Below, piece by piece: positions 50,836 through 63,934 of a stretch of DNA of 64,000 nt (position 1 is the first letter of the stretch; every line of letters starts with the position of its first letter). This stretch comes from Gammaproteobacteria bacterium. GTDB taxonomy: Bacteria > Pseudomonadota > Gammaproteobacteria > JAADGQ01. The stretch spans positions 1,018 to 65,017 of the forward strand of contig JAKITI010000007.1 in assembly GCA_021648145.1 (NCBI GenBank). The letters run 5' to 3'. The translations under genes were made by a program, and so were the position numbers. Below the pieces are notes generated by a model. That model saw only the letters and a list, made by a program, of their open reading frames with translations, was not told the origin of the DNA and did not search any database.

Positions 50836-51681
50836 TTAAAAATCTGAAATTTTACGGATAAACTTAACAATCAACCAAAAGAACAACAATGGAAAAGCGA
50901 TTGTCTGCAGGATAAATACAACAATCAGATTTAATGTATTTTCACTGACATGAGTGGCGGCCGCTTTGTACTTTTCAATACGAGCATCAATATTGATTTG
51001 GTAACTTGCCGATTCATATAGGCGCTTGACATTGTCAAGCAGGGAATTAGGGCCTTGAGGCATTACTTCTGGCTGGGCTTCACGATTTATATTGGCAATT
51101 GCTTCAGAGGTTTTTTCAAGTTCTTGTCTGGATGATTCATATTGAGGTGCTAGAAAAAACTGGTATATTCCTTCATTAGCAATGGCCACTGTCGGTACGG
51201 CAAATCGTATAATAATAAGTACAGCCGCAGCTTTATAAACTCTATATCGCCATTTTTCACCAAGCACATCAGGTCGCCAAAGCAACCACAAGGCTATTAA
51301 GCAGGCAAAAGCGATTAATAATGTAAATCCAGGCCAGACCGTGATATCCAGTAATATTTGTTGAATGCCAAGTGAAACACCACAACTCAGCATCACCCAG
51401 GAAAAACGTTCAATAAGGTCATTAATGGGATCAAGTATTTGGCCTGGAGTAAAATTAACTCCAATACCTGCGGGTTGAATGGCAATTTCTGTTCCTTGTG
51501 CAACGGAAATGACACCATTCAATCCCCGAGCCACACCGAACGTCATGAGCGCACGCTTTGTTCCTGACTCAGTGTAGTTTTTACCGATACTATCGAGTGA
51601 ACCCAAAAAGGCGATTGCAACCAGCGCCACTAAGAGAGCACTAATAAAGATTTTTAGAGTGACTGAACGTGGAGAATACAT
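50836..51681 (-). CDS. polytopic inner-membrane protein of unknown function, translationally coupled to the upstream EndoU-like gene
   Basis: About 281 aa from MYSPRSVTLKIF, with several hydrophobic helices. The ATG lies 1 nt after the TAA of the upstream gene. Confidence 0.55.
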   Translation of the reverse strand: MYSPRSVTLKIFISALLVALVAIAFLGSLDSIGKNYTESGTKRALMTFGVARGLNGVISVAQGTEIAIQPAGIGVNFTPGQILDPINDLIERFSWVMLSCGVSLGIQQILLDITVWPGFTLLIAFACLIALWLLWRPDVLGEKWRYRVYKAAAVLIIIRFAVPTVAIANEGIYQFFLAPQYESSRQELEKTSEAIANINREAQPEVMPQGPNSLLDNVKRLYESASYQINIDARIEKYKAAATHVSENTLNLIVVFILQTIAFPLLFFWLIVKFIRKISDF

Positions 51682-51682
51682 A

Positions 51683-52504
51683 TTAGTCACACTGCTGAGT
51701 TCGCCCAGGCGTCGCATCTGGATAAAAAGTAACAATGCTACTATTTTGTACGACTAATAGCGCCTGAAATTTTGGGGTGTTCTCTTCGGATGGTACGGTA
51801 TATAAGCAGGTCTGCTTGCTTTTGGAGCGTCTAGGGTTTAGCTGCGCGTAGGCTCTTGTGGTATGAACCAATAAATCAGCGGCATTAAATGAATAAGCGT
51901 AGCCTTTTATTTTGGTTTCTACGGTTCTCCCTTTCCACTGGTGCTGCACGCCTAGTGAATAAATTGTATTGGGAATAATTTCTTCAATTCCCTTTTTGAC
52001 GGATAAAGGCCCACCCCATGCTTTTTGCTGCATTTCCAGATAACGTCCAACGTAGTGCAATCCCCCCATTTTATCTGCTTTAGGATCACCACAAAAAATA
52101 TGAGCAAATCCTCGGCGTTTAAACCAGATTGCAGTCAGGGTCTCAATAATACTTTTTTTGTTACAAGCACCGAATGATTCACAACCGACCTCCTGGCGGA
52201 TGCGTTTAATAATAGGAGCCGATGATCTTTTATATAACAACGCTTTAAAATCTGAAGCTTTTACTTTTGCTCCAAAATCACCGCAAAGCTCAAGAATGCT
52301 TTTGTCAAAAGTATTCAGTTTTGGTGGAGGGGGCGTGATATCTCGTTTTTGATATTTAGGAAAATCGACTTTAACCGGATTATGTTTATCGTCAAAAAAA
52401 GGGCTGAATTGGCTGGGGGCTGTTGATGGTTCAGGGATGGCGGACATTGCATATAAAGGGCTGAATATTGCAACAGATAAGAAAAATATGACTGTTTTTT
52501 TCAT
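51683..52504 (-). CDS. secreted EndoU/XendoU-family endoribonuclease homolog
   Basis: Signal peptide MKKTVIFFLSVAIFSPLYA. The region IWFKRRGFAHIFCGDPKADKMGGLHYVGRYLEMQ matches the XendoU catalytic core GFEHVFVGE-x7-SGFHNWIxFYLEE (two catalytic His). The start is taken at internal Met 52504. Confidence 0.6.
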   Translation of the reverse strand: MKKTVIFFLSVAIFSPLYAMSAIPEPSTAPSQFSPFFDDKHNPVKVDFPKYQKRDITPPPPKLNTFDKSILELCGDFGAKVKASDFKALLYKRSSAPIIKRIRQEVGCESFGACNKKSIIETLTAIWFKRRGFAHIFCGDPKADKMGGLHYVGRYLEMQQKAWGGPLSVKKGIEEIIPNTIYSLGVQHQWKGRTVETKIKGYAYSFNAADLLVHTTRAYAQLNPRRSKSKQTCLYTVPSEENTPKFQALLVVQNSSIVTFYPDATPGRTQQCD

Positions 52505-52567
52505 TTTAGGTTTTACCACTCTTGAATGACTTGAGTTATTTATAAAATAGATGATAATGCAAAACCT

Positions 52568-53248
52568 ATGAAAATACTCGCAATTGATACAGCTTCTGAT
52601 GCCTGTTCTGCCGCACTCTGGCTGGATGGGGATATTTTTGAGCGCTATGAGCTGGCTCCTCGCCAGCATACCTCTCTGATTTTGCCCATGGTTGAGTCAC
52701 TGATGGCGGATGCCGGACTCTCTTTAACTCAACTGGATGCCGTTGCTTTTGGCCGTGGCCCTGGCGCTTTTACTGGAGTTCGAATTGCAACTGGTGTGAT
52801 TCAAGGGTTGGCTCTGGGGGCTGATTTACCTGTTGTTCCTGTCTCTTCTTTGGCTGCATTAGCACAAGGAGCATCCCGAATTCATCGGCAAAAAAATATT
52901 CTGGCTGCCTTTGATGCGCGGATGGGTGAGGTGTATTGGGGACAATACTGTTTGGCTGATAACGGTTTAGTCGAATTGCTGGGCAATGAGCTTGTTTGTG
53001 CACCACAAGTTGTGCCTAAACCCAGTCAGAGTCTTGAGTGGTTGGCTGTAGGTAATGGCTGGAGGGCTTATGAGGATGAATTAAATAGTGTTTGTCAGGT
53101 GGTTAATATTTCAGCGCAGGATGTCGATTATTTGCCACATGCACAAGATGTTGCACAGCTTGCGGTGAATGACTTTAAAAAAGGTTTGGCGGTATCAGCT
53201 GAGCAAGCGTTGCCAGTCTATTTACGTGATAATGTCGTTAGAACATGA
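52568..53248 (+). CDS. tsaB: tRNA threonylcarbamoyladenosine biosynthesis protein TsaB
   Basis: MKILAIDTASDACSAALW...GPGAFTGVRIATGVIQGLA is the YeaZ/TsaB signature. Confidence 0.85.
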   Translation: MKILAIDTASDACSAALWLDGDIFERYELAPRQHTSLILPMVESLMADAGLSLTQLDAVAFGRGPGAFTGVRIATGVIQGLALGADLPVVPVSSLAALAQGASRIHRQKNILAAFDARMGEVYWGQYCLADNGLVELLGNELVCAPQVVPKPSQSLEWLAVGNGWRAYEDELNSVCQVVNISAQDVDYLPHAQDVAQLAVNDFKKGLAVSAEQALPVYLRDNVVRT

Positions 53249-53333
53249 TTTGCCTTCATAGGCTCAGCCAGTAAATTAGTTGTAATTTACCTAAGGATTA
53301 TGTGTATATAAAAGGAGTATTTCCATAATGAAA

Positions 53334-53760
53334 GCTAGGTCAACGCCGCCACCATGGTTACAGACAAAACGCCTGCGTTTACGGGAGTAAGTCGAATCAA
53401 CGTTGGTTATGGTACGGCGTTGATCACGCAACCAATACGATACTGGCCTATGTATTTGGTTGACGTAAAGATGTTGTTTTTAAAGAGCTGAAAGCTTTGT
53501 TGGAACCCTTTGAAATCAGCCATTACTACACCGATGACTGGGGCGCTTATGAGCGTTACCTAAAATCGGACAATCATGAAGTCGGTAAACGTAACACCCA
53601 AAAAATTGAACGTAAAAATCTAAACCTTCGAACCTGGATTAAATGACTGACTCGCAGAACAATCTGCTTTTAAAAAACAGACGAAATGCATGATATCGTC
53701 ATTGGATTGATAATCAATAAAGTGGAATTTAACATAGATATTCATGCCGACATTCAGATT
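53334..53760 (+). pseudogene. IS1-family transposase (insB-like) remnant with in-frame stops
   Basis: The translation gives QRWLWYGVDHATNTILAYVFG*RKDVVFKELKALLEPFEISHYYTDDWGAYERYLKSDNHEVGKRNTQKIERKNLNLRTWIK*LTRRTICF*K. It is collinear with IS1 InsB (QRWLFYAYD...DGWPLYE...[30 protein letters not shown]). It has three stop codons, lacks the 5' portion, and has no intact terminal inverted repeats. Confidence 0.6.
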
Positions 53761-53781
53761 TAACCCCACCACCCTTTATAT

Positions 53782-54090
53782 TTACGGTCGAGGTATTTGA
53801 CGGCAGGGCGTGCTGAATGAGCATTGCCAAGAATTCAGGACATGCGGTTCAATACATGTTGTGCAAACAAGGCACTCTTCACCAAAGCTGGGTGACTTTG
53901 AACGCTGTACCAGATTAATTCGATCCGCACAGGAGAGCAGCATCAACCTCTTAAACAGGCTTTGCCAGTCATGTTTTTGAGGCGAATTATCACCTCGCCA
54001 GTGAAGGCGTTCTTTGCCCGTGACTGCATCAATTAATGTAATTGATGGTGCTCCCTGCTCCAGTCGAGCGTCGATCATATAAGTCATCAA
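53782..54090 (-). CDS. hypothetical small protein
   Basis: 102-aa ORF with a Cys-rich C-terminus and no recognised motif. It may be a relic associated with the IS remnant. Confidence 0.3.
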   Translation of the reverse strand: MMTYMIDARLEQGAPSITLIDAVTGKERLHWRGDNSPQKHDWQSLFKRLMLLSCADRINLVQRSKSPSFGEECLVCTTCIEPHVLNSWQCSFSTPCRQIPRP

Positions 54091-54123
54091 TAGCTCTCCT
54101 CTTGTTGTGCATTTTTGTTATTA

Positions 54124-54142
54124 ATGTGCGAATGATAATGAG
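54124..54142. promoter_or_regulatory. candidate Fur box upstream of the TonB-dependent receptor
   Basis: GATAATGAGATTGATTCTT has about 14 of 19 matches to the Fur consensus GATAATGATAATCATTATC. It lies in the divergent promoter region roughly 260 bp upstream of the receptor start. Confidence 0.35.
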
Positions 54143-54399
54143 ATTGATTCTTATTTGCAATAATTAATTTTCCCTGTCTGTTTTTTATGCTTCTGTTTCC
54201 TGGATTACAAATGATTGTGATTCGCATTTACTTTTTGTGTTTATCCGTTCATAATTTGATTCAGCCAGCCAATCGACCTGTATGGAGTCGCTGAGTAGCC
54301 AGCCAAACTATCAACCTGTCATTGCTTTAGTTCTTAATACCAGAGCTACGGCCATGGTGGTTTTATCGAAAATAAAAAATAGATTGGAGAAGTTGAAAA

Positions 54400-56688
54400 G
54401 TGAAAAGACAAAATCGTTTATTGCGTGATGCTATCGCGCTCGCTGCACTTGGCTTGGCATTGCCTGTGGGCGCAGCAGATGAGCATTCTGGTGAGGCTGA
54501 AAAAAAGGAGACCGTACTTGATAAAATAATGGTGATCGGTAATCCGGCTAATATTGAGAAAATGCCGGGTTCTGCGCAGGTGGTGACTAAAGAAGAGATT
54601 CGTCAGCAAAACTATGATGATATAAACCGTACGCTGCGTAAAGTGCCAGGTGTTTATGTGCGGGAAGAAGATGGTTTTGGCCTCTTCCCGAGCATCAGTA
54701 TCCGTGGTGTGGATACCACCCGTAACTCTAAAATCACAGTGATGGAAGATGGGGTGATGATGTCACCTGCGCCTTACACCGCACCCGCCGCTTACTATTC
54801 ACCGACAACAGGGCGCATGAGTGGTCTGGAGGTATTGAAAGGTTCCAGTCAGATTAAATACGGCCCGCACACCACCGGCGGTGTCATTAACTATCTTTCA
54901 ACGCCCATTCCAACCAAAGAAAAAGCGTATCTGAAGTCAACCTTTGGCAGCTTTAATGAACTGCGTACCCATGCTTATGCTGGTAATACATTTAATGCAG
55001 GCACTGCCGGGCAGTTCGGGGTATTGGTGGAGGGTTATCAACGAAAAAATGACGGTTTCAAACAGATTGACAAGACGGATGATTCTCGCAACAGTGATAA
55101 TACAGGTTTCAATAAAGAAGATGTGATGCTTAAATTATCATGGGAGCCGAGTACAAAAATATATCAACGGCTTGAGTTTAAATACGGCACCAGTGACCTG
55201 GATGCCAATGAAACCTATCTTGGCTTGAGTCAAGCCGATTTTGATGCTGATCCAACCCGTCGTTATGCTGCGTCACGTTTTGACAACATGAATTATGAGC
55301 AGGATCAGACCTATTTACGTTGGAACATCAGCCCCAATGATGACGTTGATGTGATTACGACGCTTTATCAGACTGGCTTCAAACGTAACTGGTACAAACT
55401 CAACAGAATCAATGGCGACAAGATTGCTGGGGTCATAGAAACTCCAGGCATGTCTCAGGAGTGCATGAAGGGCAAGGCGGTATGTGATTTAATAATCAAA
55501 GCCAATAATCGCAAATACAAGGCGCAAGGTATTGAGTCTACTGGCTATTTTAGATTCGGCTCAGACAATATTCAACACGAAGTGATGGCGGGTCTTCGTC
55601 TGCATCAGGATTCAATCACACGTTTTCAGTGGGAAGACACGTATGCTCAGGCGGCCAATGGCACCATCAGTGGTATCACTCCAGGCGTAAAAGGTGAGGC
55701 GGGCAATCGTTTTCAGGAAACAAAAGCGTTGGCCTTGTTTGTCCAGGATACTATTGAAATCGGTGCTTTGACGGTCGTCCCTGGTGTTCGTTATGAGCAA
55801 CTGGGTCAAATCTCTAAAGATTCCAAGACGGCTGCACCCGTCGAATTACAAGGTGTTGGTGGCACACAAAATCGCGATGGTGAAAACAGCTTTAATGTTA
55901 GCGCCTACGGTGTTGGTGCAGCCTATGAGTTTAATGATCAGTGGACAGGTTTTAGTGGCCTGCATACGGGTTATTCCACGCCTAGCCCACGCGGCACACG
56001 TGGCGGGCTTGATCCGGAAACCAGTACTGCTTTTGAAATGGGTGCACGTTACACTAATGCACCACAGGCATTCGCGGCTGAAAGTACTTTTTTCTACACT
56101 GCCTTTAAAGACTTGATCGTGACCGATAATGTGGGCGGTACCGGCACCGGTAATGATGAAAACTTTGGTGAGGTGGATACCTTTGGTATTGAACTTGCTA
56201 TTCAATATGACGCAGGACTCGCCAACCACTGGGGCTTTAGTAACCCATCGTTCCTGAGCGTGACCTACACCAATGCCGAGCAAAAAAATGACTCGGTGTC
56301 TACAGATGGAGAGTCGATTTTTAGCTACGGCAGAGCGGGTAATGCAGTCCCCTATATTCCAGAGCTGACATTGAGTGTGGGTACGGGTATCGAAACAAAA
56401 AAATGGGGTGCGTCTATCTCGGGTAACTATGTGAGCGAGACGTTTACGAGTGCTAATAATGTAGACGATCAAGTCAATGGTGACGGCGATACCGATGCAC
56501 GGTATGGCAAAACAGACAGCTATTTTATTGCTGATGTTTCTGCTTTTTATCGCATAAATGATGAGGTGAAGCTCTTTGCTGGTGTGCAAAACGTGATGGA
56601 TAATGAGTACGTTGTATCACGCCAGCCTTATGGCGCACGCGGAGGCCTGCCACAGTTTGTTTATGCCGGTATTGAAATGGATATGTAA
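54400..56688 (+). CDS. TonB-dependent outer-membrane receptor
   Basis: GTG start preceded by GGAGA. It has a signal peptide, a TonB-box-like ETVLDKIMVIG, a plug domain and a long beta-barrel (762 aa). Confidence 0.85.
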   Translation: MKRQNRLLRDAIALAALGLALPVGAADEHSGEAEKKETVLDKIMVIGNPANIEKMPGSAQVVTKEEIRQQNYDDINRTLRKVPGVYVREEDGFGLFPSISIRGVDTTRNSKITVMEDGVMMSPAPYTAPAAYYSPTTGRMSGLEVLKGSSQIKYGPHTTGGVINYLSTPIPTKEKAYLKSTFGSFNELRTHAYAGNTFNAGTAGQFGVLVEGYQRKNDGFKQIDKTDDSRNSDNTGFNKEDVMLKLSWEPSTKIYQRLEFKYGTSDLDANETYLGLSQADFDADPTRRYAASRFDNMNYEQDQTYLRWNISPNDDVDVITTLYQTGFKRNWYKLNRINGDKIAGVIETPGMSQECMKGKAVCDLIIKANNRKYKAQGIESTGYFRFGSDNIQHEVMAGLRLHQDSITRFQWEDTYAQAANGTISGITPGVKGEAGNRFQETKALALFVQDTIEIGALTVVPGVRYEQLGQISKDSKTAAPVELQGVGGTQNRDGENSFNVSAYGVGAAYEFNDQWTGFSGLHTGYSTPSPRGTRGGLDPETSTAFEMGARYTNAPQAFAAESTFFYTAFKDLIVTDNVGGTGTGNDENFGEVDTFGIELAIQYDAGLANHWGFSNPSFLSVTYTNAEQKNDSVSTDGESIFSYGRAGNAVPYIPELTLSVGTGIETKKWGASISGNYVSETFTSANNVDDQVNGDGDTDARYGKTDSYFIADVSAFYRINDEVKLFAGVQNVMDNEYVVSRQPYGARGGLPQFVYAGIEMDM

Positions 56689-56774
56689 GTTTTTATTGTT
56701 TGTCACGGGTGGCAAGTTTCATGATTTGCCACCCTGTTTTGTTTTGAAAACAGAAAAATGGTGATTAAGAATTT

Positions 56775-57452
56775 ATGAATATAGTCGAGTTATTCCAGCA
56801 AGGCGGGCCAGTGATGATCGTGCTGTTGGCGATGTCCGTATTGGCGCTGGCCATTATCTTGCTTAAGTTGTTTCAGTTTGCCCGTAGCGGTTTGCGTCGT
56901 TTGAATTTTGTGGATTCCACTTTAGTGGCGTTACAACAAGGTGATTACAATAAGGCGCTGGATGAATTAAAGCAGCAGCGTAGTCCTGTGGCTCATGTGA
57001 TGGCGTGTGCCATACGCTGTGGTGCTGATCCGGCCATGTCGAGCAAAGATGTGGAGGCTGAAGTCAGCCGTGTCGGTTCGGCGCAAATTCGCAATCTTGA
57101 GTCGTGGCTGCGAGGGCTTTCATCCATTGCGCACTTGAGTCCGTTACTGGGACTGTTAGGGACGGTGACTGGCATGATTGTCGCTTTCATGAGCCTTGAA
57201 GCGGCGGGCAGCCGTGTTGATCCATCAATTCTTTCCGGTGGTATCTGGGAAGCGTTACTGACCACAGCGTTTGGTCTTACAGTGGCGATTCCAGCGATGG
57301 CCGCCTTTTATTATCTGGAAGGCGAAGTGGATCAGGTGCGTGCTTCGATGAAAGATGTCAGCATTCGGGTGCTGCGTCATTTTGGTAAAACACCTTCCAG
57401 TATCTCAAACCGTGATGACGATAAAATCGAGGATGAAACCCATGGAATTTGA
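56775..57452 (+). CDS. exbB: MotA/TolQ/ExbB proton-channel protein
   Basis: Three TM segments and the conserved LGLLGTVTGMIVAF region. Confidence 0.85.
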   Translation: MNIVELFQQGGPVMIVLLAMSVLALAIILLKLFQFARSGLRRLNFVDSTLVALQQGDYNKALDELKQQRSPVAHVMACAIRCGADPAMSSKDVEAEVSRVGSAQIRNLESWLRGLSSIAHLSPLLGLLGTVTGMIVAFMSLEAAGSRVDPSILSGGIWEALLTTAFGLTVAIPAMAAFYYLEGEVDQVRASMKDVSIRVLRHFGKTPSSISNRDDDKIEDETHGI

Positions 57453-57840
57453 AGGTCGTGCCCGTATCCACTCTCATCTTGATATTGCACCGCTGATTGA
57501 TATTGTTTTCCTATTGCTGGTCTTTTTTATGTTGACGAGCACCTTTTTGGTGCCGGAAGCTATAGAGTTGGAGCTGCCTGAATCGAGCAGCTCGAATGTG
57601 AGTGAAATAACACCCATTACAGTCGCGTTGAATCAAACCGGTGAATTAACACTTAATGGAGAAAAAATTGCATTGGATCAGTTGAAAACAGCGATTGAAC
57701 CCTTGCTAAAACAAGGTAGTGATGCGCCTATCACTCTGAAAAGTGATGCTCATAGCGAAGTGCAGCAATTACTCAGTGTCATGGATGAAATTCGCGCTGC
57801 AGGCGGTAGCAATATCGCGCTGGCTACAACGCAGAAATAG
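57442..57840 (+). CDS. exbD: biopolymer transport protein ExbD/TolR
   Basis: MEFEGRARIHSHLDIAPLIDIVFLLLVFFM. The start overlaps the exbB stop. Confidence 0.8.
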   Translation: MEFEGRARIHSHLDIAPLIDIVFLLLVFFMLTSTFLVPEAIELELPESSSSNVSEITPITVALNQTGELTLNGEKIALDQLKTAIEPLLKQGSDAPITLKSDAHSEVQQLLSVMDEIRAAGGSNIALATTQK

Positions 57841-57844
57841 TTTT

Positions 57845-58540
57845 TTGATCATTACACGTTTACACATTGTTATTGCGCTGTTGATAACACTGGCATTACA
57901 CGGCGGTTTGGCTATATGGCTGGTGTTGCCCAAGAAAGATCCACTTCCTGAGCCACTTAAACAAATCGTACGTATTAATTTGCAGGCTGCTGTCGCAGAA
58001 ACCACTGTGACTACACCTGCACCGATTGTTGAGCCACCTCCAGAAGAGTTGACTCATGAACCAAAAATAGAGCCTAAGCCAATCCCTGCACCGCCCAAGC
58101 CAAAACCTGTTCCCAAACCAGTGATTCAAAAACCTCCGACAAAGCCTCAACCTATTGTCGAGCCCACACCCAAGCTGGAGCCGCCACCTGAAGTTGCTCA
58201 AGAAGTCACCCCACCTGTGGAAACCTTGGTCGTACCTCCGCTGGATGCCGTTGCGACTGCGAAGTATGAACAATTGCTCACGGCATGGCTGGATAAACAT
58301 AAAAAATACCCCAAAAGAGCCAAGCGTATGCGTATTGAAGGAGAGGGTGTATTGCGTATTTTGATCGACCGTTCGGGGCAGTTACAGCAAGTGACACTGG
58401 GTCAGTCAACGGGTAATCGGCTGCTCGATAAAGCTGCACTTGAGATGGCTAGAAAAGCTAATCCATTTCCCGCCATGCCTGAAAATGACCCTCGCCAATC
58501 ACTGGAATTTGTTGTGCCTGTGGAGTTTGTGCTGCATTAA
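57845..58540 (+). CDS. tonB: energy transducer TonB
   Basis: N-terminal TM anchor, a Pro/Lys-rich spacer (PKPIPAPPKPKPVPKPV...) and a C-terminal TonB domain. The start is probably the TTG at 57845, just after the exbD stop. The ORF-table start upstream would overlap exbD. Confidence 0.7.
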   Translation: MIITRLHIVIALLITLALHGGLAIWLVLPKKDPLPEPLKQIVRINLQAAVAETTVTTPAPIVEPPPEELTHEPKIEPKPIPAPPKPKPVPKPVIQKPPTKPQPIVEPTPKLEPPPEVAQEVTPPVETLVVPPLDAVATAKYEQLLTAWLDKHKKYPKRAKRMRIEGEGVLRILIDRSGQLQQVTLGQSTGNRLLDKAALEMARKANPFPAMPENDPRQSLEFVVPVEFVLH

Positions 58541-58836
58541 TTTTTCGGGTGATGTTTGTCATGTTTGTTATCGGTCTTATAGTGATTTATGAATGGCTAT
58601 GGCTAATGAATCAGTTAGAAGGTTTTGAATTCTAAAGTGTTTTGTGAGTGATCTGAAGAGTTGAATCTTTGTGGCTTTATTCCTTGTTGTCTGCGGAGGA
58701 ATACTTTAAGAGTTTGTTAAGTTTGGGGGACTAAAATGTAATCACTAAAAATTAAATTATAGCAATTTTGGTGGCAGTTATGTACCTGACTAAAATAAAA
58801 AGAATAAGGATATACAACAAACGTTCATCTCTCTTC

Positions 58837-61272
58837 ATGTTACCCATGCTACGAAGACCGGTGATTGCATTGCTGGCCGGAGCAGTGCTGTATTCGGATA
58901 TTTCAACGGTGACTGCTGCTCCGATAGTAAACCCAAAAGTTGTACACCACTCAGCGGTAGAACAGGCACGCCAAGGCCAGCATGGAGCGGCACTGAAACA
59001 ACTCAACTCACTCGTTCAGGCTTACCCTGACAATCTGTTATTTCGTTACGACTATATTAATACGCTTGCTTGGGCCGAGCGTGATGAAGAGGTACTGGCA
59101 CAATTACCTCATATTGATTTTGAGCAGGCGCCTACCTACGTTCTCAGAGCCATTGGTAAATCTGCACGCAACCGGCAACACCCCAATGTGGCCATCCAGG
59201 CTTATCGTGCAGCACTGAAACAGACCCCTAATGAGCGGCAAACTCAACTAGGTCTTGCCATGAGTCTGGCTGAAGCCAAACAGCCTGTTAAAGCTAAAAA
59301 ACAAATCCAGTCTTTGCTTAAAACTGATCCCGGATCTATCGAGTTATTAAAAACACTGGCCTATATAAAAGAGGTTGATCATGATTACGCAGGTGCTTTT
59401 GATATTTATGATCGACTGTTAGTCATTGAACCTAACAATAAAAGTATTCGATATGCTCGGGTTATGAGCTTACTCCAACTGGGTGTTCCTCATGAAGCAC
59501 TGCAGTTTGCCCGTCGCGATACCAGTTTATTCACTCCCGAAGAGTGGAATCGAATGCTTGGCGATCAGGCGGCAATAGAAATACGTTGGGGACAACAGCG
59601 TGTAGTGGAGCCATCCCAACGTTATTTCAATACCGATAAAGCAATTGAGCTGCTAAAAAATCAACTCAATAATATAACGAATAAAACATCTCCAGCGTAT
59701 CTGCGTAATCGCTTTGATCTTATTGCAGCGTATCGTAATCGACGTTATATGCGTGAAGCCACTAGGCTGTATGAACAGTTACGTAAAGAGGGTGTAAAGC
59801 ATTTTCCTCCTTATGTGCAAGCACTTGTTGGTGATGCTTATTTATCACAGCGTCAACCCGAGCAAGCCATTACCTTGCTGGAAAAATCCATCAATAAAGA
59901 TCCTCACAATCTGGATGCACAATATTCACTGTATTACGCTTACCTTGAGGCAGGTCGTTATGAGCAATCACTGACTCATATTGATGCCCTTGATAATTCA
60001 TTGCCGCAATGGATATGGCCACCAGGCAGCAAGGAAAAGCAGCTCAATTTTGATAAATTATATGCTAGTACTGTTTCTTCCATGGCTCGTGCCTATACTG
60101 GAAAACTGGGTCAGGCTGAAAATAGGCTTAATGCCCTGTTAGCTCAGGATCCCGATAATACTGGTGCGCAAACCAGTCTTGCTCACGTTTTTTTATGGCG
60201 AGGCTGGCCACGTCTGGCCTTGGAAAAGTACCAGAGCGTGCTGGCTCAAGATTCAGATAATACGGAAGCTAAAACAGGCATTGTCAGTGCGCTGTCTGCT
60301 CGTGGTAATTTCGCAGAATCAGAGGCAGTGTTGAAGCCACTTCAATACCAATATAGCGATTACCTGCAAGTAAAAAACCTGACTCGGGAAGTCAATATTC
60401 GTAAAATGCGAGAGGTATGGCTCGAAGTGAATGGTGGCTCCAGTAGCGATACTACACTCTATCAGGGCAGCAGTGATCTGGGGTTTACAGCCTACTACTA
60501 TGATCGACCCTGGCGTTTGGGGCTTCGCTCCTTTGCTTATCTATCACACCTTCAGGGTAATTTTTCTGGGGAAACAGCAACCCGTAACCGAGGGGGCATC
60601 GGGTTTCATTATCAACAACAAGATGTTGTGCTCAGAGGTAATGTCAGTGGTGGTGATGGGTCTGCGGGGCTCTCTCTGCAGGGGAGCTGGAATCCAACCG
60701 ATCATTGGCAGGGAAGCCTTGCTATAGAAACATTCAGCGATGAAACACCATTAAGAGCTGATCTGGCAGGTGTTAAAGCACGGTCTCTGAATGTCGGTAC
60801 AAAGTATCGTTTTCACGAAAGCCGCAGCTTGGGAGCTTCTATTCAATATATGGATTTCGATGATGGCAATCAACGAAATACGCTTTCTGTGTTTGGCCAG
60901 CAACGTCTTTTCACGGGCTTGCGTTACAAGTTAGCGAGTGAGTTGTATCTCTACCATCAAACGAATTCAGTAGATAATGCGGCCTATTTTAATCCTTCAA
61001 AACAAAGCTCTGTTGAACTGAGCTTTAATAATGAGTGGCTGACCTTTATGCATTATGAAAAATCAATGCGCCAACGCTTCAAGATCGGAATTGGCTCAAG
61101 CAGCCAACAAAACTTTGATACAAAACCAACCTGGATGGTGAGCTATGAACATTACTGGAGCTTTAGTCAGCAGTTGAGCTTGGCTTACGGTATGAGTCGC
61201 TCCAAACCTGTTTACGATGGTGTGAAAGAGTCTTTTATCCGTGGGTTTATGAACTTATATATAAGGTTTTGA
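58837..61272 (+). CDS. pgaA: poly-beta-1,6-N-acetyl-D-glucosamine export porin PgaA
   Basis: Signal peptide, N-terminal TPR repeats and a C-terminal beta-barrel. It lies upstream of pgaBCD. The ORF could start further upstream (GTG 58768). Confidence 0.8.
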   Translation: MLPMLRRPVIALLAGAVLYSDISTVTAAPIVNPKVVHHSAVEQARQGQHGAALKQLNSLVQAYPDNLLFRYDYINTLAWAERDEEVLAQLPHIDFEQAPTYVLRAIGKSARNRQHPNVAIQAYRAALKQTPNERQTQLGLAMSLAEAKQPVKAKKQIQSLLKTDPGSIELLKTLAYIKEVDHDYAGAFDIYDRLLVIEPNNKSIRYARVMSLLQLGVPHEALQFARRDTSLFTPEEWNRMLGDQAAIEIRWGQQRVVEPSQRYFNTDKAIELLKNQLNNITNKTSPAYLRNRFDLIAAYRNRRYMREATRLYEQLRKEGVKHFPPYVQALVGDAYLSQRQPEQAITLLEKSINKDPHNLDAQYSLYYAYLEAGRYEQSLTHIDALDNSLPQWIWPPGSKEKQLNFDKLYASTVSSMARAYTGKLGQAENRLNALLAQDPDNTGAQTSLAHVFLWRGWPRLALEKYQSVLAQDSDNTEAKTGIVSALSARGNFAESEAVLKPLQYQYSDYLQVKNLTREVNIRKMREVWLEVNGGSSSDTTLYQGSSDLGFTAYYYDRPWRLGLRSFAYLSHLQGNFSGETATRNRGGIGFHYQQQDVVLRGNVSGGDGSAGLSLQGSWNPTDHWQGSLAIETFSDETPLRADLAGVKARSLNVGTKYRFHESRSLGASIQYMDFDDGNQRNTLSVFGQQRLFTGLRYKLASELYLYHQTNSVDNAAYFNPSKQSSVELSFNNEWLTFMHYEKSMRQRFKIGIGSSSQQNFDTKPTWMVSYEHYWSFSQQLSLAYGMSRSKPVYDGVKESFIRGFMNLYIRF

Positions 61273-62669
61273 TGATGAATTTTCCAAAAAAAATAAAAAA
61301 ATATTTTTTCTGTCAGAGGCTGCATTATTTTTGGGTTACTCTGCTATTTTTGGCAATAATCACCCCCGTGCATGCGGAGCTTATTGTGCTCTCCTATCAT
61401 GAAGCCAATCATAAGCTTGATCAAGATGCAGATTTTGATGCCATGACGCTTAAGACCTCTGAGCTGGCAGCACAATTTTCCTGGCTCAAAGAGCACGACT
61501 ATGTCGTGATCGGTATTGATGATTTATTGGCCGCTCAAAAAGGGGTGCGTGCTTTACCTGATAAAGCCGTGCTGCTCAGCTTTGATGATGGCTATCTGGG
61601 AATGTATACACAAGTTTATCCACTGCTGCGTGCTTTTGACTATCAGGCCGTGATTGCATTAGTTGGACGCTGGATGGAGACACCTGGCGGAAAAACTGTG
61701 ATGTATGGCTCCAAGCCCGTAGCTCGTGAAAAATTTTTAAGCTGGGCTCAAATTCGGGAGATGGTGAAATCTGGATATGTAGAAGTCGCTTCTCATAGCT
61801 ATGATCTTCATCATGGCATCATAGCCAACCCACAAGGCAACACACAGCCTGCTGCTATCAGTCAGCACTATAGTACTGATATCGGCGAATACGAAAGTGA
61901 TAAACAGTATCGTCAACGTATTTATAATGATCTGAAACGTAACTCAGACCTTATTGTCCGAAAAACAGGTCAAAAACCACGAGTGCTTGTGTGGCCTTAC
62001 GGTGCTTATAATCGCATCACCACCGACATTGCTCAAAAACTTGATATGCCTATTACGATGAGCCTTGAAGAGGAAAAAGTAGATATCAAGAGTTCTGATA
62101 GCATAAACCGACTACTGATTGGCCACGGAATTACGCTAGCTGACTTTATCTGGCAAATCACCAATCATTACAAACCTAAAAAAGAGCTTGTACGTGCAGT
62201 CAATCTCAATCTTGATGATATCTATGATCCAGACCCCAAACAACAAGAAAAAAATCTGGGAAAATTTCTTGAACGGGTCAAAAAACACCACATAAACAGA
62301 GTCTACTTACAGGCATTCTCTGATCCGGATGGTGATGGTGGTGTAGATACAGTGTATTTTCCTAACCGCCATTTTCCGGTACGTGCTGATCTGTTTAATC
62401 GAGTGGCTTGGCAGCTACGGACACGTACTGGATCTAAAGTCTACGCCTGGATTCCCCCTGAAGCCTTTGATCCAAAAACTACCTACTTATCTGGTGATCT
62501 CTACGAAGATTTGGCCAAGTACGCGTCTATAGATGGCCTGATTTTTTATCATGGTGAGTTAAGTGATTATGAACATGAGCTGGCTGAACGTGCTCGCCTC
62601 TATCGTCCTCAGCTCAAAATTGCACATCAACAAGCGGGTTTATCTCCCATGATTTTGGAGAAAAACTGA
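61272..62669 (+). CDS. pgaB: poly-beta-1,6-N-acetyl-D-glucosamine N-deacetylase PgaB
   Basis: Polysaccharide deacetylase domain (LSFDDGY, H-x-H metal site) plus a C-terminal GH-like domain. The start overlaps the pgaA stop. Confidence 0.85.
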   Translation: MMNFPKKIKKYFFCQRLHYFWVTLLFLAIITPVHAELIVLSYHEANHKLDQDADFDAMTLKTSELAAQFSWLKEHDYVVIGIDDLLAAQKGVRALPDKAVLLSFDDGYLGMYTQVYPLLRAFDYQAVIALVGRWMETPGGKTVMYGSKPVAREKFLSWAQIREMVKSGYVEVASHSYDLHHGIIANPQGNTQPAAISQHYSTDIGEYESDKQYRQRIYNDLKRNSDLIVRKTGQKPRVLVWPYGAYNRITTDIAQKLDMPITMSLEEEKVDIKSSDSINRLLIGHGITLADFIWQITNHYKPKKELVRAVNLNLDDIYDPDPKQQEKNLGKFLERVKKHHINRVYLQAFSDPDGDGGVDTVYFPNRHFPVRADLFNRVAWQLRTRTGSKVYAWIPPEAFDPKTTYLSGDLYEDLAKYASIDGLIFYHGELSDYEHELAERARLYRPQLKIAHQQAGLSPMILEKN

Positions 62670-62671
62670 TC

Positions 62672-63934
62672 ATGGAATATTGGCTTTCAATCTATCTGAA
62701 TCTGGCACTTAACCTGGCTTACTACTACCCTTTAGTCATGGCTTATGTCTGGATGGTGGGCGGAGTGTACTATTATAATAAATGGGAGCGTGGGCAGCCA
62801 GTTGGTGGAGATGCGATTGCATTGCCATATTATCCTCCCGTTAGTATTTTGATACCTTGTCATAATGAAGGCGCAAACCTGCGTGAGACCATCTCGGTAC
62901 TGCTTAACCAGAATTATCCTGATTTTGATATTATTGCGATCAATGACGGAAGCAGTGACAACACAGGAGAGCTGCTGGATGAGTTGTGCCAGAAATCCCC
63001 TCGTTTACACGTTGTACATCTGAATGAAAACCAGGGAAAAGCCATGGCTCTGAATGTCGGAGCCATGATGTCTTCCAGCGAGTTTCTGATCTGTATTGAT
63101 GGCGATGCATTACTGGGCACTAATGCAACGAATAGGATGATGCAGCACTTTATTCGTGGTTCTAATGTAGGTGCTGTGACCGGAAACCCACGGGTACGCA
63201 CCCGCTCTACACTAATCGGGAAAATACAGGTCGGTGAATTTTCATCAATTGTTGGCTTAATCAAACGCGCACAGCGTATTTATGGTCGAATATTCAGCAT
63301 ATCAGGTGTTGTTTCCGGGTTCCGAAAATCAGCCTTGCAAGATGCTGGATATTGGAGTGTGGATGCGATCACTGAGGATATTGATATCAGCTGGAAGCTA
63401 CAGTTAAAAGGCTGGGATATCCGTTTTGAACCCAATGCCTTGTGCTGGATCTTAATGCCGGAAACATTTAAAGGTCTGTGGCAGCAACGTCTTCGCTGGG
63501 CTCAGGGAGGGGTCGAAGTCTTTACCCGTTATTTTTTACAAATTATACGCCTGCGCCATCGGCGCTTATGGTTGTTAATGGCTGAATATTTTATCAGCAT
63601 ACTGTGGACTTATGCCGTTGTCTCTCTGCTTGTGCTATGGCCTCTGATGCAATTTATTCCTAACATGGAAGAGACTAAAACGTTTTCCCTTCTGCCCAGT
63701 TCGGCAGGCTTATTACTGGCAATGACTTGTCTGATTCAGTTTGCTGTGAGCTTTTATATTGATGCTCGTTATGAAAGAGGCTTAGGGAAAATTTATTACT
63801 GGATAGTTTGGTATCCCTTGATTTATTGGCTAATTAACCTGATCACACTTGCTGTAGCTATACCTTTAACACTACTGAGAACCCGTAAAAAACGTGCTAT
63901 ATGGACGAGCCCTGACAGAGGAGTACGACCATGA
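62672..63934 (+). CDS. pgaC: poly-beta-1,6-N-acetyl-D-glucosamine synthase PgaC (GT2)
   Basis: GT2 motifs DGSSDNT, DGD and QQRLRWAQG (QxxRW), plus TM helices. Confidence 0.9.
   Translation: MEYWLSIYLNLALNLAYYYPLVMAYVWMVGGVYYYNKWERGQPVGGDAIALPYYPPVSILIPCHNEGANLRETISVLLNQNYPDFDIIAINDGSSDNTGELLDELCQKSPRLHVVHLNENQGKAMALNVGAMMSSSEFLICIDGDALLGTNATNRMMQHFIRGSNVGAVTGNPRVRTRSTLIGKIQVGEFSSIVGLIKRAQRIYGRIFSISGVVSGFRKSALQDAGYWSVDAITEDIDISWKLQLKGWDIRFEPNALCWILMPETFKGLWQQRLRWAQGGVEVFTRYFLQIIRLRHRRLWLLMAEYFISILWTYAVVSLLVLWPLMQFIPNMEETKTFSLLPSSAGLLLAMTCLIQFAVSFYIDARYERGLGKIYYWIVWYPLIYWLINLITLAVAIPLTLLRTRKKRAIWTSPDRGVRP

Follow-up and report, generated by a model that had tools for sequence, protein, structure and literature searches.

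A probable Sec-exported EndoU-family endoribonuclease of a gammaproteobacterium and the membrane-protein gene that follows it

The DNA considered here, hereafter the window, is a stretch of 64,000 nucleotides (nt) of contig JAKITI010000007.1 from a Gammaproteobacteria bacterium (assembly GCA_021648145.1). It carries two closely spaced minus-strand genes, termed A and B. Gene A (51683..52504) encodes a precursor of 273 amino acids (aa), and gene B (50836..51681) encodes a membrane protein of 281 aa that is predicted to be all-helical. The reading preferred here, to which a probability of about 0.7 is assigned, is that A is a Sec-exported endoribonuclease of the EndoU fold and that B was placed behind it by a rearrangement, without being its export, anchoring or immunity partner. 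Profile searches, structure prediction, residue conservation, the N-terminal leader and the comparison of related loci all bear on this reading.

That A is a true EndoU-fold protein is evident from several searches. The Pfam family PF14436 (EndoU_bacteria) matches residues 130-264 with 76.3 bits (cutoff 25.3) and an E-value of 3.6e-21, over profile positions 2-129 of 129, and it is matched by all 38 aligned relatives of A. The initial annotation had named the protein a eukaryote-type XendoU homolog. The fold was correctly recognised, but the family found by hidden Markov model is PF14436, and the XendoU model PF09412 (gathering threshold 32.3 bits) finds nothing in A at E<=10. Among the 38 relatives, 31 match PF09412 weakly (best E 2.2e-5) and 10 match PF19215, the C-terminal domain of coronavirus Nsp15. 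A phmmer search with A alone against the sequences of the Protein Data Bank (PDB) returned nothing, whereas the 38-member family profile retrieved human EndoU (9FTW, E 1e-4) and XendoU (2C1W, E 0.0065), aligned through EFxxxLxxIWF...GFEHxFxGE...G(L/F)H. The alignment to XendoU GFEHVFVGE...GxHNW that had been proposed earlier is the same as that produced by HMMER with the family profile. The profile also pairs the C-terminal ...IVTFYPD with ...VATFYPQ of HCoV-229E Nsp15, and it did not detect the contact-dependent inhibition (CDI) toxin 5HKQ among the PDB sequences. A sub-profile of the N-terminal lobe (A3) gave chance-level matches only against the PDB, and a 64-aa XendoU fragment searched against the protein database returned only exon-sized fragments of 59-106 aa, unfit for profile-profile comparison.

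The structural evidence points in the same direction. The AlphaFold2 model of A, built on the family alignment, has a predicted local distance difference test (pLDDT) score of 85.8 and a predicted template modelling score (pTM) of 0.82, and its only disordered part is residues 1-28, which comprise the leader and a linker. A Foldseek search of the PDB with this model gave E<0.05 only for EndoU-family entries, with human EndoU first and many Nsp15 entries after it. In the structural comparison, human EndoU (9FTW) scored 14.1 over 195 residues, XendoU (2C1W) 13.3 over 183, MERS Nsp15 (5YVD) 10.7 over 152, the CDI toxin CdiA-CT STECO31 (5HKQ) 6.0 over 121, and arterivirus Nsp11 (5HBZ) 5.6 over 106. 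As modelled, A is closer to XendoU and human EndoU than to any bacterial structure in the PDB. The EndoU homology that had been read from the letters alone is hence borne out by both a profile match and a fold match.

The protein is larger than the Pfam domain. The catalytic core, residues 130-264 (51713..52117, minus strand), holds His135, His150, Lys200, Thr259 and Tyr261. Conservation in the family begins well before it, at residue 35 (PFFD...). This N-terminal lobe, residues 35-129 (52118..52402, minus strand; PFFD...ITPPPP...LxxCG...IWF), lies outside the Pfam model, is confidently modelled as helices, and has the invariant residues F36, F37, D38, D55, P58, P61, L71, C74, G75, L123 and W127. 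The residues that align to human EndoU and XendoU in excess of the 135 of the core presumably lie in this lobe. The ratio of nonsynonymous to synonymous substitution rates (dN/dS) of A against its 82%-identical ortholog is 0.09, which shows that A is under purifying selection.

The core motif reads W127-F-K-R-R-G-F-A-H135-I-F-C-G-D140-(6 residues)-G-G-L-H150-Y-V-G-R-Y-L-E; it is present as the initial annotation had described it, except that the spacer is of six residues and not seven. Conservation was counted over 121 sequences, that is, A and 120 homologs. His135, His150, Tyr202, Thr259, Tyr261, Asp263, Cys74 and Cys138 are invariant in all 121, so that the earlier statement that both catalytic histidines are kept stands. 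The two histidines are 15 residues apart and are aligned with the motifs that hold the catalytic histidines in human EndoU, XendoU and Nsp15. Position 200 (window 51905-51907) is Lys in 54 of the 121 sequences and Thr or Asn in the other 67. In A it is Lys, within K-G-Y, 50 residues past His150 and 59 before Thr259; the second histidine and a lysine at the expected place are therefore both present.

The second line of evidence concerns export. The N-terminus of A, MKKTVIFFLSVAIFSPLYA|MSAIPEPSTAP, starts with two Lys and a hydrophobic stretch of some 12 residues, has Leu at -3 and Ala at -1 of the cleavage site, and reads as a canonical n-h-c leader, in line with the Sec signal peptide of the initial annotation. 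A leader of this kind was counted in 50 of the 121 family sequences, A among them. The predicted Sec-type signal peptide covers residues 1-19 (MKKTVIFFLSVAIFSPLYA; 52448..52504, minus strand) and would be cut after Ala19. Reading of the leader found no lipobox Cys, and by hydropathy the leader is the sole hydrophobic segment of the protein. The start at 52504 is backed by the N-termini of the relatives P0001-P0003. A 328-aa version starting from 52669 is not supported, as the closest relatives begin instead at the equivalent MK(K/R/N).

Among the cysteines of A, Cys74 and Cys138, the latter three residues past the catalytic His135, are invariant, as stated above. Cys233 (51806-51808) and Cys272 (51689-51691) occur together in 108 sequences and are both missing from 13, with never a single one present. 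Cys108 and Cys114 are found as a pair in 9 of 10 cases, and only in the gammaproteobacterial clade. Such co-variation is the pattern expected of disulfide partners, and the disulfides Cys74-Cys138, Cys108-Cys114 and Cys233-Cys272 are likely in A. Taken with the leader, these pairs suggest that A is exported and is most likely a periplasmic or extracellular, disulfide-stabilised RNase.

There is also evidence from outside the window. SignalP gives All2314 of Anabaena, annotated as a ‘putative endoU-like nuclease,’ a signal peptide probability of 0.87, and the protein has been found in the exoproteome (PMC10957091). The gene all2314 of Anabaena sp. PCC 7120 adjoins all2315, which is ilvC, and in 32 cyanobacterial loci, Anabaena and Trichormus among them, ilvC immediately precedes the A-family gene on its strand. 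Owing to the ‘endoU-like’ annotation and the ilvC synteny, All2314 is very probably the PCC 7120 member of the A family.

Not every member of the family has a leader, and the difference follows position 200. Lys is found in each of the 51 proteins that carry a hydrophobic leader, and all 67 proteins with Thr or Asn are leaderless; Arg199 is present in all but one of these 67. In the leaderless gene of locus L090, the one checked, a stop codon stands immediately 5' of the start. The split may separate a secreted active form from an intracellular altered form, and A itself is of the leader-plus-Lys200 type.

The leaderless members could be taken to mean that A also works inside the cell, on tRNA or another RNA together with its neighbour tsaB, and that its hydrophobic N-terminus is not a cleaved leader. 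The gene tsaB (52568..53248, plus strand; TIGR03725, 210 bits against a cutoff of 69) lies 63 nt upstream of A in the opposite direction, and the same divergent pair is found at three more loci (L003, L010 and L004). The initial annotation was right about this neighbour, but not about the tRNA-modification context that it drew from it: the adjacency is confined to close relatives of 64-82% identity and is absent from L009, from L007 and from all cyanobacterial loci. Moreover, the leaderless proteins form a separate subgroup with Thr or Asn for Lys200, while A has the canonical leader and six cysteines, and the probable Anabaena member was found outside the cell. An intracellular role of A is accordingly regarded as very improbable.

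The course of events in the preferred reading, export of an active RNase, may be outlined as follows. The precursor would cross the inner membrane unfolded and lose its 19-residue leader, and the mature protein of about 254 aa would fold outside the cytoplasm with up to three disulfides. By analogy with the family, His135 and His150 would act as general acid and base, Lys200 would stabilise the transition state, and Thr259 and Tyr261 would line the nucleotide pocket. Single-stranded RNA would then be cut by 2'-O-transesterification, probably next to pyrimidines or uridines, to leave 2',3'-cyclic phosphate and 5'-OH ends, as in other EndoU enzymes. Active RNase would never be present in the cytoplasm of the producer, which would be protected by compartmentation, and hence no immunity protein would be needed. 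The role is the least certain step: the favoured possibility is that A degrades RNA in the periplasm or outside the cell, either to salvage nucleotides or phosphate or to turn over matrix RNA. In such a role A would be analogous to other exported bacterial RNases.

Several points weigh against the reading of A as an exported, active nuclease. The signal peptide was assigned by eye and by hydropathy, and the mature protein may stay in the periplasm or be released from the cell. The disulfides are predicted from co-variation, and the leaderless relatives retain Cys74, Cys138, Cys233 and Cys272, which weakens the argument from cysteines to export. The equivalence of Lys200 with K224 of XendoU, K290 of Nsp15 and K343 of human EndoU is probable, on the strength of spacing and local pattern. 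A sub-profile of the C-terminal half (A4) gave chance-level matches only against the PDB. Probable co-transcription with B, described below, leaves room for a newly acquired functional link. Finally, Ala134 of A takes the place of the Ca2+ ligand E284 of human EndoU, a position that is Glu in most of the cyanobacterial relatives.

The last point also bears on whether A is an enzyme at all. The Ca2+ sites of human EndoU involve E284, E217, D179 and D315, with E290 as bridging residue (PMC11961692), and the residue of A that corresponds to E290 is Asp140. A catalytically dead or repurposed EndoU fold, for example an RNA- or ligand-binding periplasmic protein, would fit the loss of the Ca2+-ligand Glu before the first His (GFAHIF against GFEHIF or GFEHVF) and the Phe at position 206, which is commonly Ser or Thr in the family. 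However, both histidines, Lys200, Thr259, Tyr261 and Asp263 are kept, purifying selection is strong, and bacterial EndoU toxins are active free of metal. Eukaryotic EndoU is activated by Ca2+ through Glu284 and other ligands, while the bacterial toxins need no metal cofactor (PMC11961692). A dead enzyme is therefore considered highly unlikely. With Ala134 in place of Glu284, A may or may not depend on metal.

The relation of A to the gene that follows was the second matter raised by the initial annotation. It had reported that the ATG of B follows the stop codon of A after a single nucleotide, and coordinates and frames agree with this: the junction (TAA-t-ATG; 51681..51685, minus strand) reads ...TGT GAC TAA t ATG TAT..., with 1 nt between stop and start, and reading of the junction by eye found no Shine-Dalgarno-like sequence upstream of the B start. 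A scan of 50200-53400 for promoters and terminators gave nothing above shuffled sequence, and Rfam and tRNA scans of the whole window gave no matches. With so short a gap, A and B are now probably co-transcribed, and B is perhaps translated by re-initiation after A, but the spacing by itself does not point to a functional partnership.

It had been proposed from this spacing that A and B form a dedicated two-gene module, in which B anchors, exports or neutralises the nuclease. The stop-start arrangement of 1 nt without a Shine-Dalgarno sequence does imply co-transcription and possible translational coupling, and the A-B arrangement recurs on a separate contig, L009. However, L009 is a contig of 4.2 kilobases (kb) that is 99.07% identical to window 48641-52517, and hence belongs to the same lineage. 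In a tblastn search of 89 loci with B, a B homolog was found beside A only in L009, i.e., in 1 of 85 A-family loci, and no B homolog was found within 5 kb at the other 84. The orthologs of A at 82% (L003, L010) and 64% identity (L004) are arranged as pgpA-tsaB / A-DUF1820, with DUF1820 and not B as the next gene, and at L007, which encodes a 53% relative, both tsaB and B are missing from the vicinity. The B family outnumbers the A family more than 25-fold, and it lives without A: B homologs without A occur in L001, L002 and L005, the one in L002 standing alone, the Thiohalobacter homolog is flanked by an ABC transporter and greB, and distant homologs lie beside unrelated genes. An exported enzyme, moreover, needs no cytoplasmic or membrane immunity factor. 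Since the A-B adjacency is limited to one lineage, the partner module is not supported and is given very little credence here.

The loci themselves suggest how the two genes came together. In L005, an 80%-identical B follows rmuC, with its GTG start one nt past the rmuC stop (L005 1608-1614), so that the 1-nt gap upstream of B is common to rmuC-B and to the A-B junction, where the start is ATG. Downstream of B in L005 are rubrerythrin and then a large protein that is 76% identical to the 1,980-aa FG-GAP repeat protein of the window; a 93-aa open reading frame (ORF) between B and rubrerythrin is absent from the window. The order B-rubrerythrin-large repeat protein is common to the window, L005 and L009, and in the window the rubrerythrin gene (50226..50804, plus strand; NF045767, 294 bits) is the convergent neighbour of B. 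On the other side of A, L009 has an unrelated divergent lipoprotein gene in place of tsaB. Of the 37 differences between L009 and the window, 29 are crowded into the 5' untranslated region and the opening ~85 nt of A (window 52420-52517; L009 1-460), a cluster that indicates a putative recombination breakpoint where A encodes its leader. The joining of [tsaB-A] to [B-rubrerythrin-repeat protein] at the A-B junction was thus a recent rearrangement, specific to this lineage, and the 1-nt spacing of B to its upstream gene is older than the arrival of A.

B, for its part, belongs to a sizeable family of uncharacterised membrane proteins in its own right. It has more than 3,124 homologs at E<=1e-3, and those with names are gammaproteobacterial, e.g., Thiohalobacter. 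The initial annotation had found no recognisable domain in it, and the database searches agree: against Pfam and NCBIfam it gives sub-threshold noise only (Wzz, Wzy_C, Heimdall-CTERM), and none of the 120 B homologs listed has a precomputed Pfam domain. The mean column identity of the family is 57%, with a near-invariant stretch at residues 35-95, YTExGxKRALxTFGxARGLNGVISVAQGTExAxQPAGIGxxFxPGQILDPxNDLxERFS. Hydropathy suggests about four hydrophobic, transmembrane-like helices. The AlphaFold model consists of helices throughout (pLDDT 76.7), with pLDDT below 50 at the centre of the motif (residues 65-77), and Foldseek against the PDB retrieved generic long-helix proteins only, at E>0.01. B is most likely a widely conserved inner-membrane protein that is unrelated to A and is not its dedicated partner.

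The A family is small, and most of it is from Nostocales. A word-indexed protein search with A found 121 homologs, chiefly in Nostoc, Chamaesiphon and other cyanobacteria; barring a handful of close relatives, these are stand-alone proteins of 240-290 aa, and many carry the NCBI name ‘EndoU domain-containing protein.’ When 1.84 billion cluster representatives (50% identity) were searched exhaustively with a profile, only 218 matched at E<=1e-3, and relatives are encoded at 326 loci in 185,579 species genomes. Among the best 80 of the 326 loci, all but two are cyanobacterial, the two being from metagenome-assembled genomes (MAGs) of a vent-type gammaproteobacterium (82% identity) and of Competibacteraceae (47%). 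A subset of the family has extra domains: an N-terminal metallo-beta-lactamase, a He_PIG Ig or a TIR domain. The distant relatives P0286, P0304, P0318, P0331 and P0276 combine metallo-beta-lactamase with EndoU, P0259 combines EndoU with He_PIG, and P0364 TIR with EndoU. In P0004-P0009, P0039 and P0044 (e.g., L007 6001-7215), a further conserved domain of about 100 aa lies between the leader and EndoU, with the pattern ...GYLEAKExCxAxxxxRxxNPGNxxLxxGQxYxxLxxNKxxGxYLRIxVPGAxPxxRWVxxxCG; the copy in P0005, the sole member scanned, had no Pfam match.

The statement of the initial annotation that bacterial members are uncommon and uncharacterised needs to be divided. It is right for the full-length, stand-alone subfamily, but not for bacterial EndoU domains as a whole, which include polymorphic toxins and CdiA-CT STECO31 (PMC3113570, PMC3482391, PMC9086364). 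Bacterial versions nearer to the eukaryotic and viral ones, as well as Sec-secreted stand-alone forms, were noted already in 2011 (PMC3113570; see also PMC3482391).

This background raises the question of whether A is itself an antibacterial or anti-host toxin, released to cut RNA in competitor or host cells. Most bacterial EndoU domains have been read as toxins, with Sec-secreted stand-alone versions in symbionts and pathogens (PMC3113570, PMC3482391), and the characterised CdiA-CT STECO31 is an EndoU tRNase (PMC9086364). Some relatives of A are fused to a TIR or metallo-beta-lactamase domain, and the flanks of A differ between close strains. However, A has no delivery or translocation domain, only the leader and a short Pro-rich linker, and PADLOC gave no match for A or B. 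There is no conserved downstream immunity-like gene either; the position is held by B, DUF1820 or a putative acetyltransferase according to lineage, the last being the commonest downstream gene in cyanobacterial loci (34 of 85 loci). In many Nostocales, the gene is steadily found next to ilvC and an ORF that by eye looks aldo-keto-reductase-like, and together with the dN/dS value this looks like a conserved chromosomal gene and not a polymorphic cassette. A toxin is hence thought unlikely. DUF1820 was considered separately as an immunity gene for the relatives of A and was rejected, as it is absent from the window while A stays under purifying selection.

The surroundings of A and B are dominated by envelope, surface and biofilm functions, such as pgaABC, a TonB system and giant surface proteins with FG-GAP and TSP3 repeats, which is only circumstantial for the role of A. 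Three consecutive giant surface-type proteins are encoded at 36686-50222. The first (1,350 aa) has FG-GAP, an OmpA beta-barrel, TSP3 and an OmpA C-terminal domain, and the second (999 aa) has cohesin, CHB_HEX_C and laminin-G domains. The third (1,980 aa) has 26 FG-GAP repeats and TSP3, and its C-terminus, GGGAVSILFIFILLIAGRVRFNNKLMR, resembles a C-terminal sorting signal and matches no NCBIfam CTERM model; the rubrerythrin gene starts 4 nt past its stop. A TonB-dependent receptor, ExbB, ExbD and TonB are encoded at 54400-58540, and pgaA, pgaB and pgaC, for poly-N-acetylglucosamine, at 58768-63934. The 1.15 kb between tsaB and the TonB-dependent receptor (53249-54399) contains only a doubtful minus-strand ORF of 102 aa, for which no Pfam match was found, and no Rfam family was found in this interval at gathering thresholds.

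For annotation, the name Sec-exported EndoU-family endoribonuclease can confidently be given to A, and B should not be annotated as a partner or immunity factor. A is a new member of the PF14436/EndoU superfamily, and the questions it raises are useful but incremental. According to the models, its subfamily is the bacterial group whose predicted structure is most like eukaryotic EndoU/XendoU. A wider idea, doubtful at present, is that the A family corresponds, among bacteria, to the enlarged domain of eukaryotic EndoU/XendoU and may even be the lineage from which that domain arose. The N-terminal extension that makes human EndoU switchable by Ca2+ has been described as ‘eukaryote-specific’ (PMC11961692). 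If the idea were true, the N-terminal lobe of the A family would match this extension, and the secreted members would be extracellular RNases that become active only once they have left the cell, through metal, disulfides or both, which would explain why no immunity gene is needed. The subgroup without a leader and with Thr/Asn200 would have branched off as an intracellular form, either attenuated or repurposed.

Among known proteins, the closest to A are the stand-alone EndoU proteins of Nostocales and other cyanobacteria, with 37-46% identity over 85-97% coverage. They have in common with A the leader, the PFFD...ITPPPP...CG lobe, the motif GF(E/A)HIFCG...GLHYxGRY, KGY, and the TFYPDATP...C tail. 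A differs from them in belonging to a minor gammaproteobacterial branch, to which 2 of the best 80 of 326 loci belong, in its extra Cys108/Cys114 pair, and in the Ala for Glu before the first catalytic histidine.

Enzymes of the XendoU type have an enlarged catalytic domain of about 270 aa, with an N-terminal extension packed on the core. Compared with eukaryotic EndoU/XendoU (PF09412; 9FTW, 2C1W), A falls below the PF09412 model, its N-terminal lobe showed no sequence similarity to the eukaryotic extension, and it has neither somatomedin-B nor other eukaryotic accessory domains. The nidovirus NendoU, Nsp15, is viral, hexameric and intracellular, has other N-terminal domains, and is unlike A in these respects.

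CdiA-CT STECO31 and the other polymorphic EndoU toxins form the C-terminal end, some 140 aa long, of large delivery proteins; they act on tRNA in the cytoplasm of the target cell, and each has a cognate immunity gene. A, in contrast, is exported as a complete small protein, has a conserved N-terminal lobe in addition to the core, and has neither an immunity gene nor a delivery domain (CdiA, Rhs, LXG, MafB). A may also be compared with RNase I of the E. coli periplasm, a member of the RNase T2 family; this cyclising endoribonuclease is likewise Sec-exported, contains disulfides and has no immunity protein. RNase I would be a functional analogue only, as its fold and catalytic family are unrelated to those of A.

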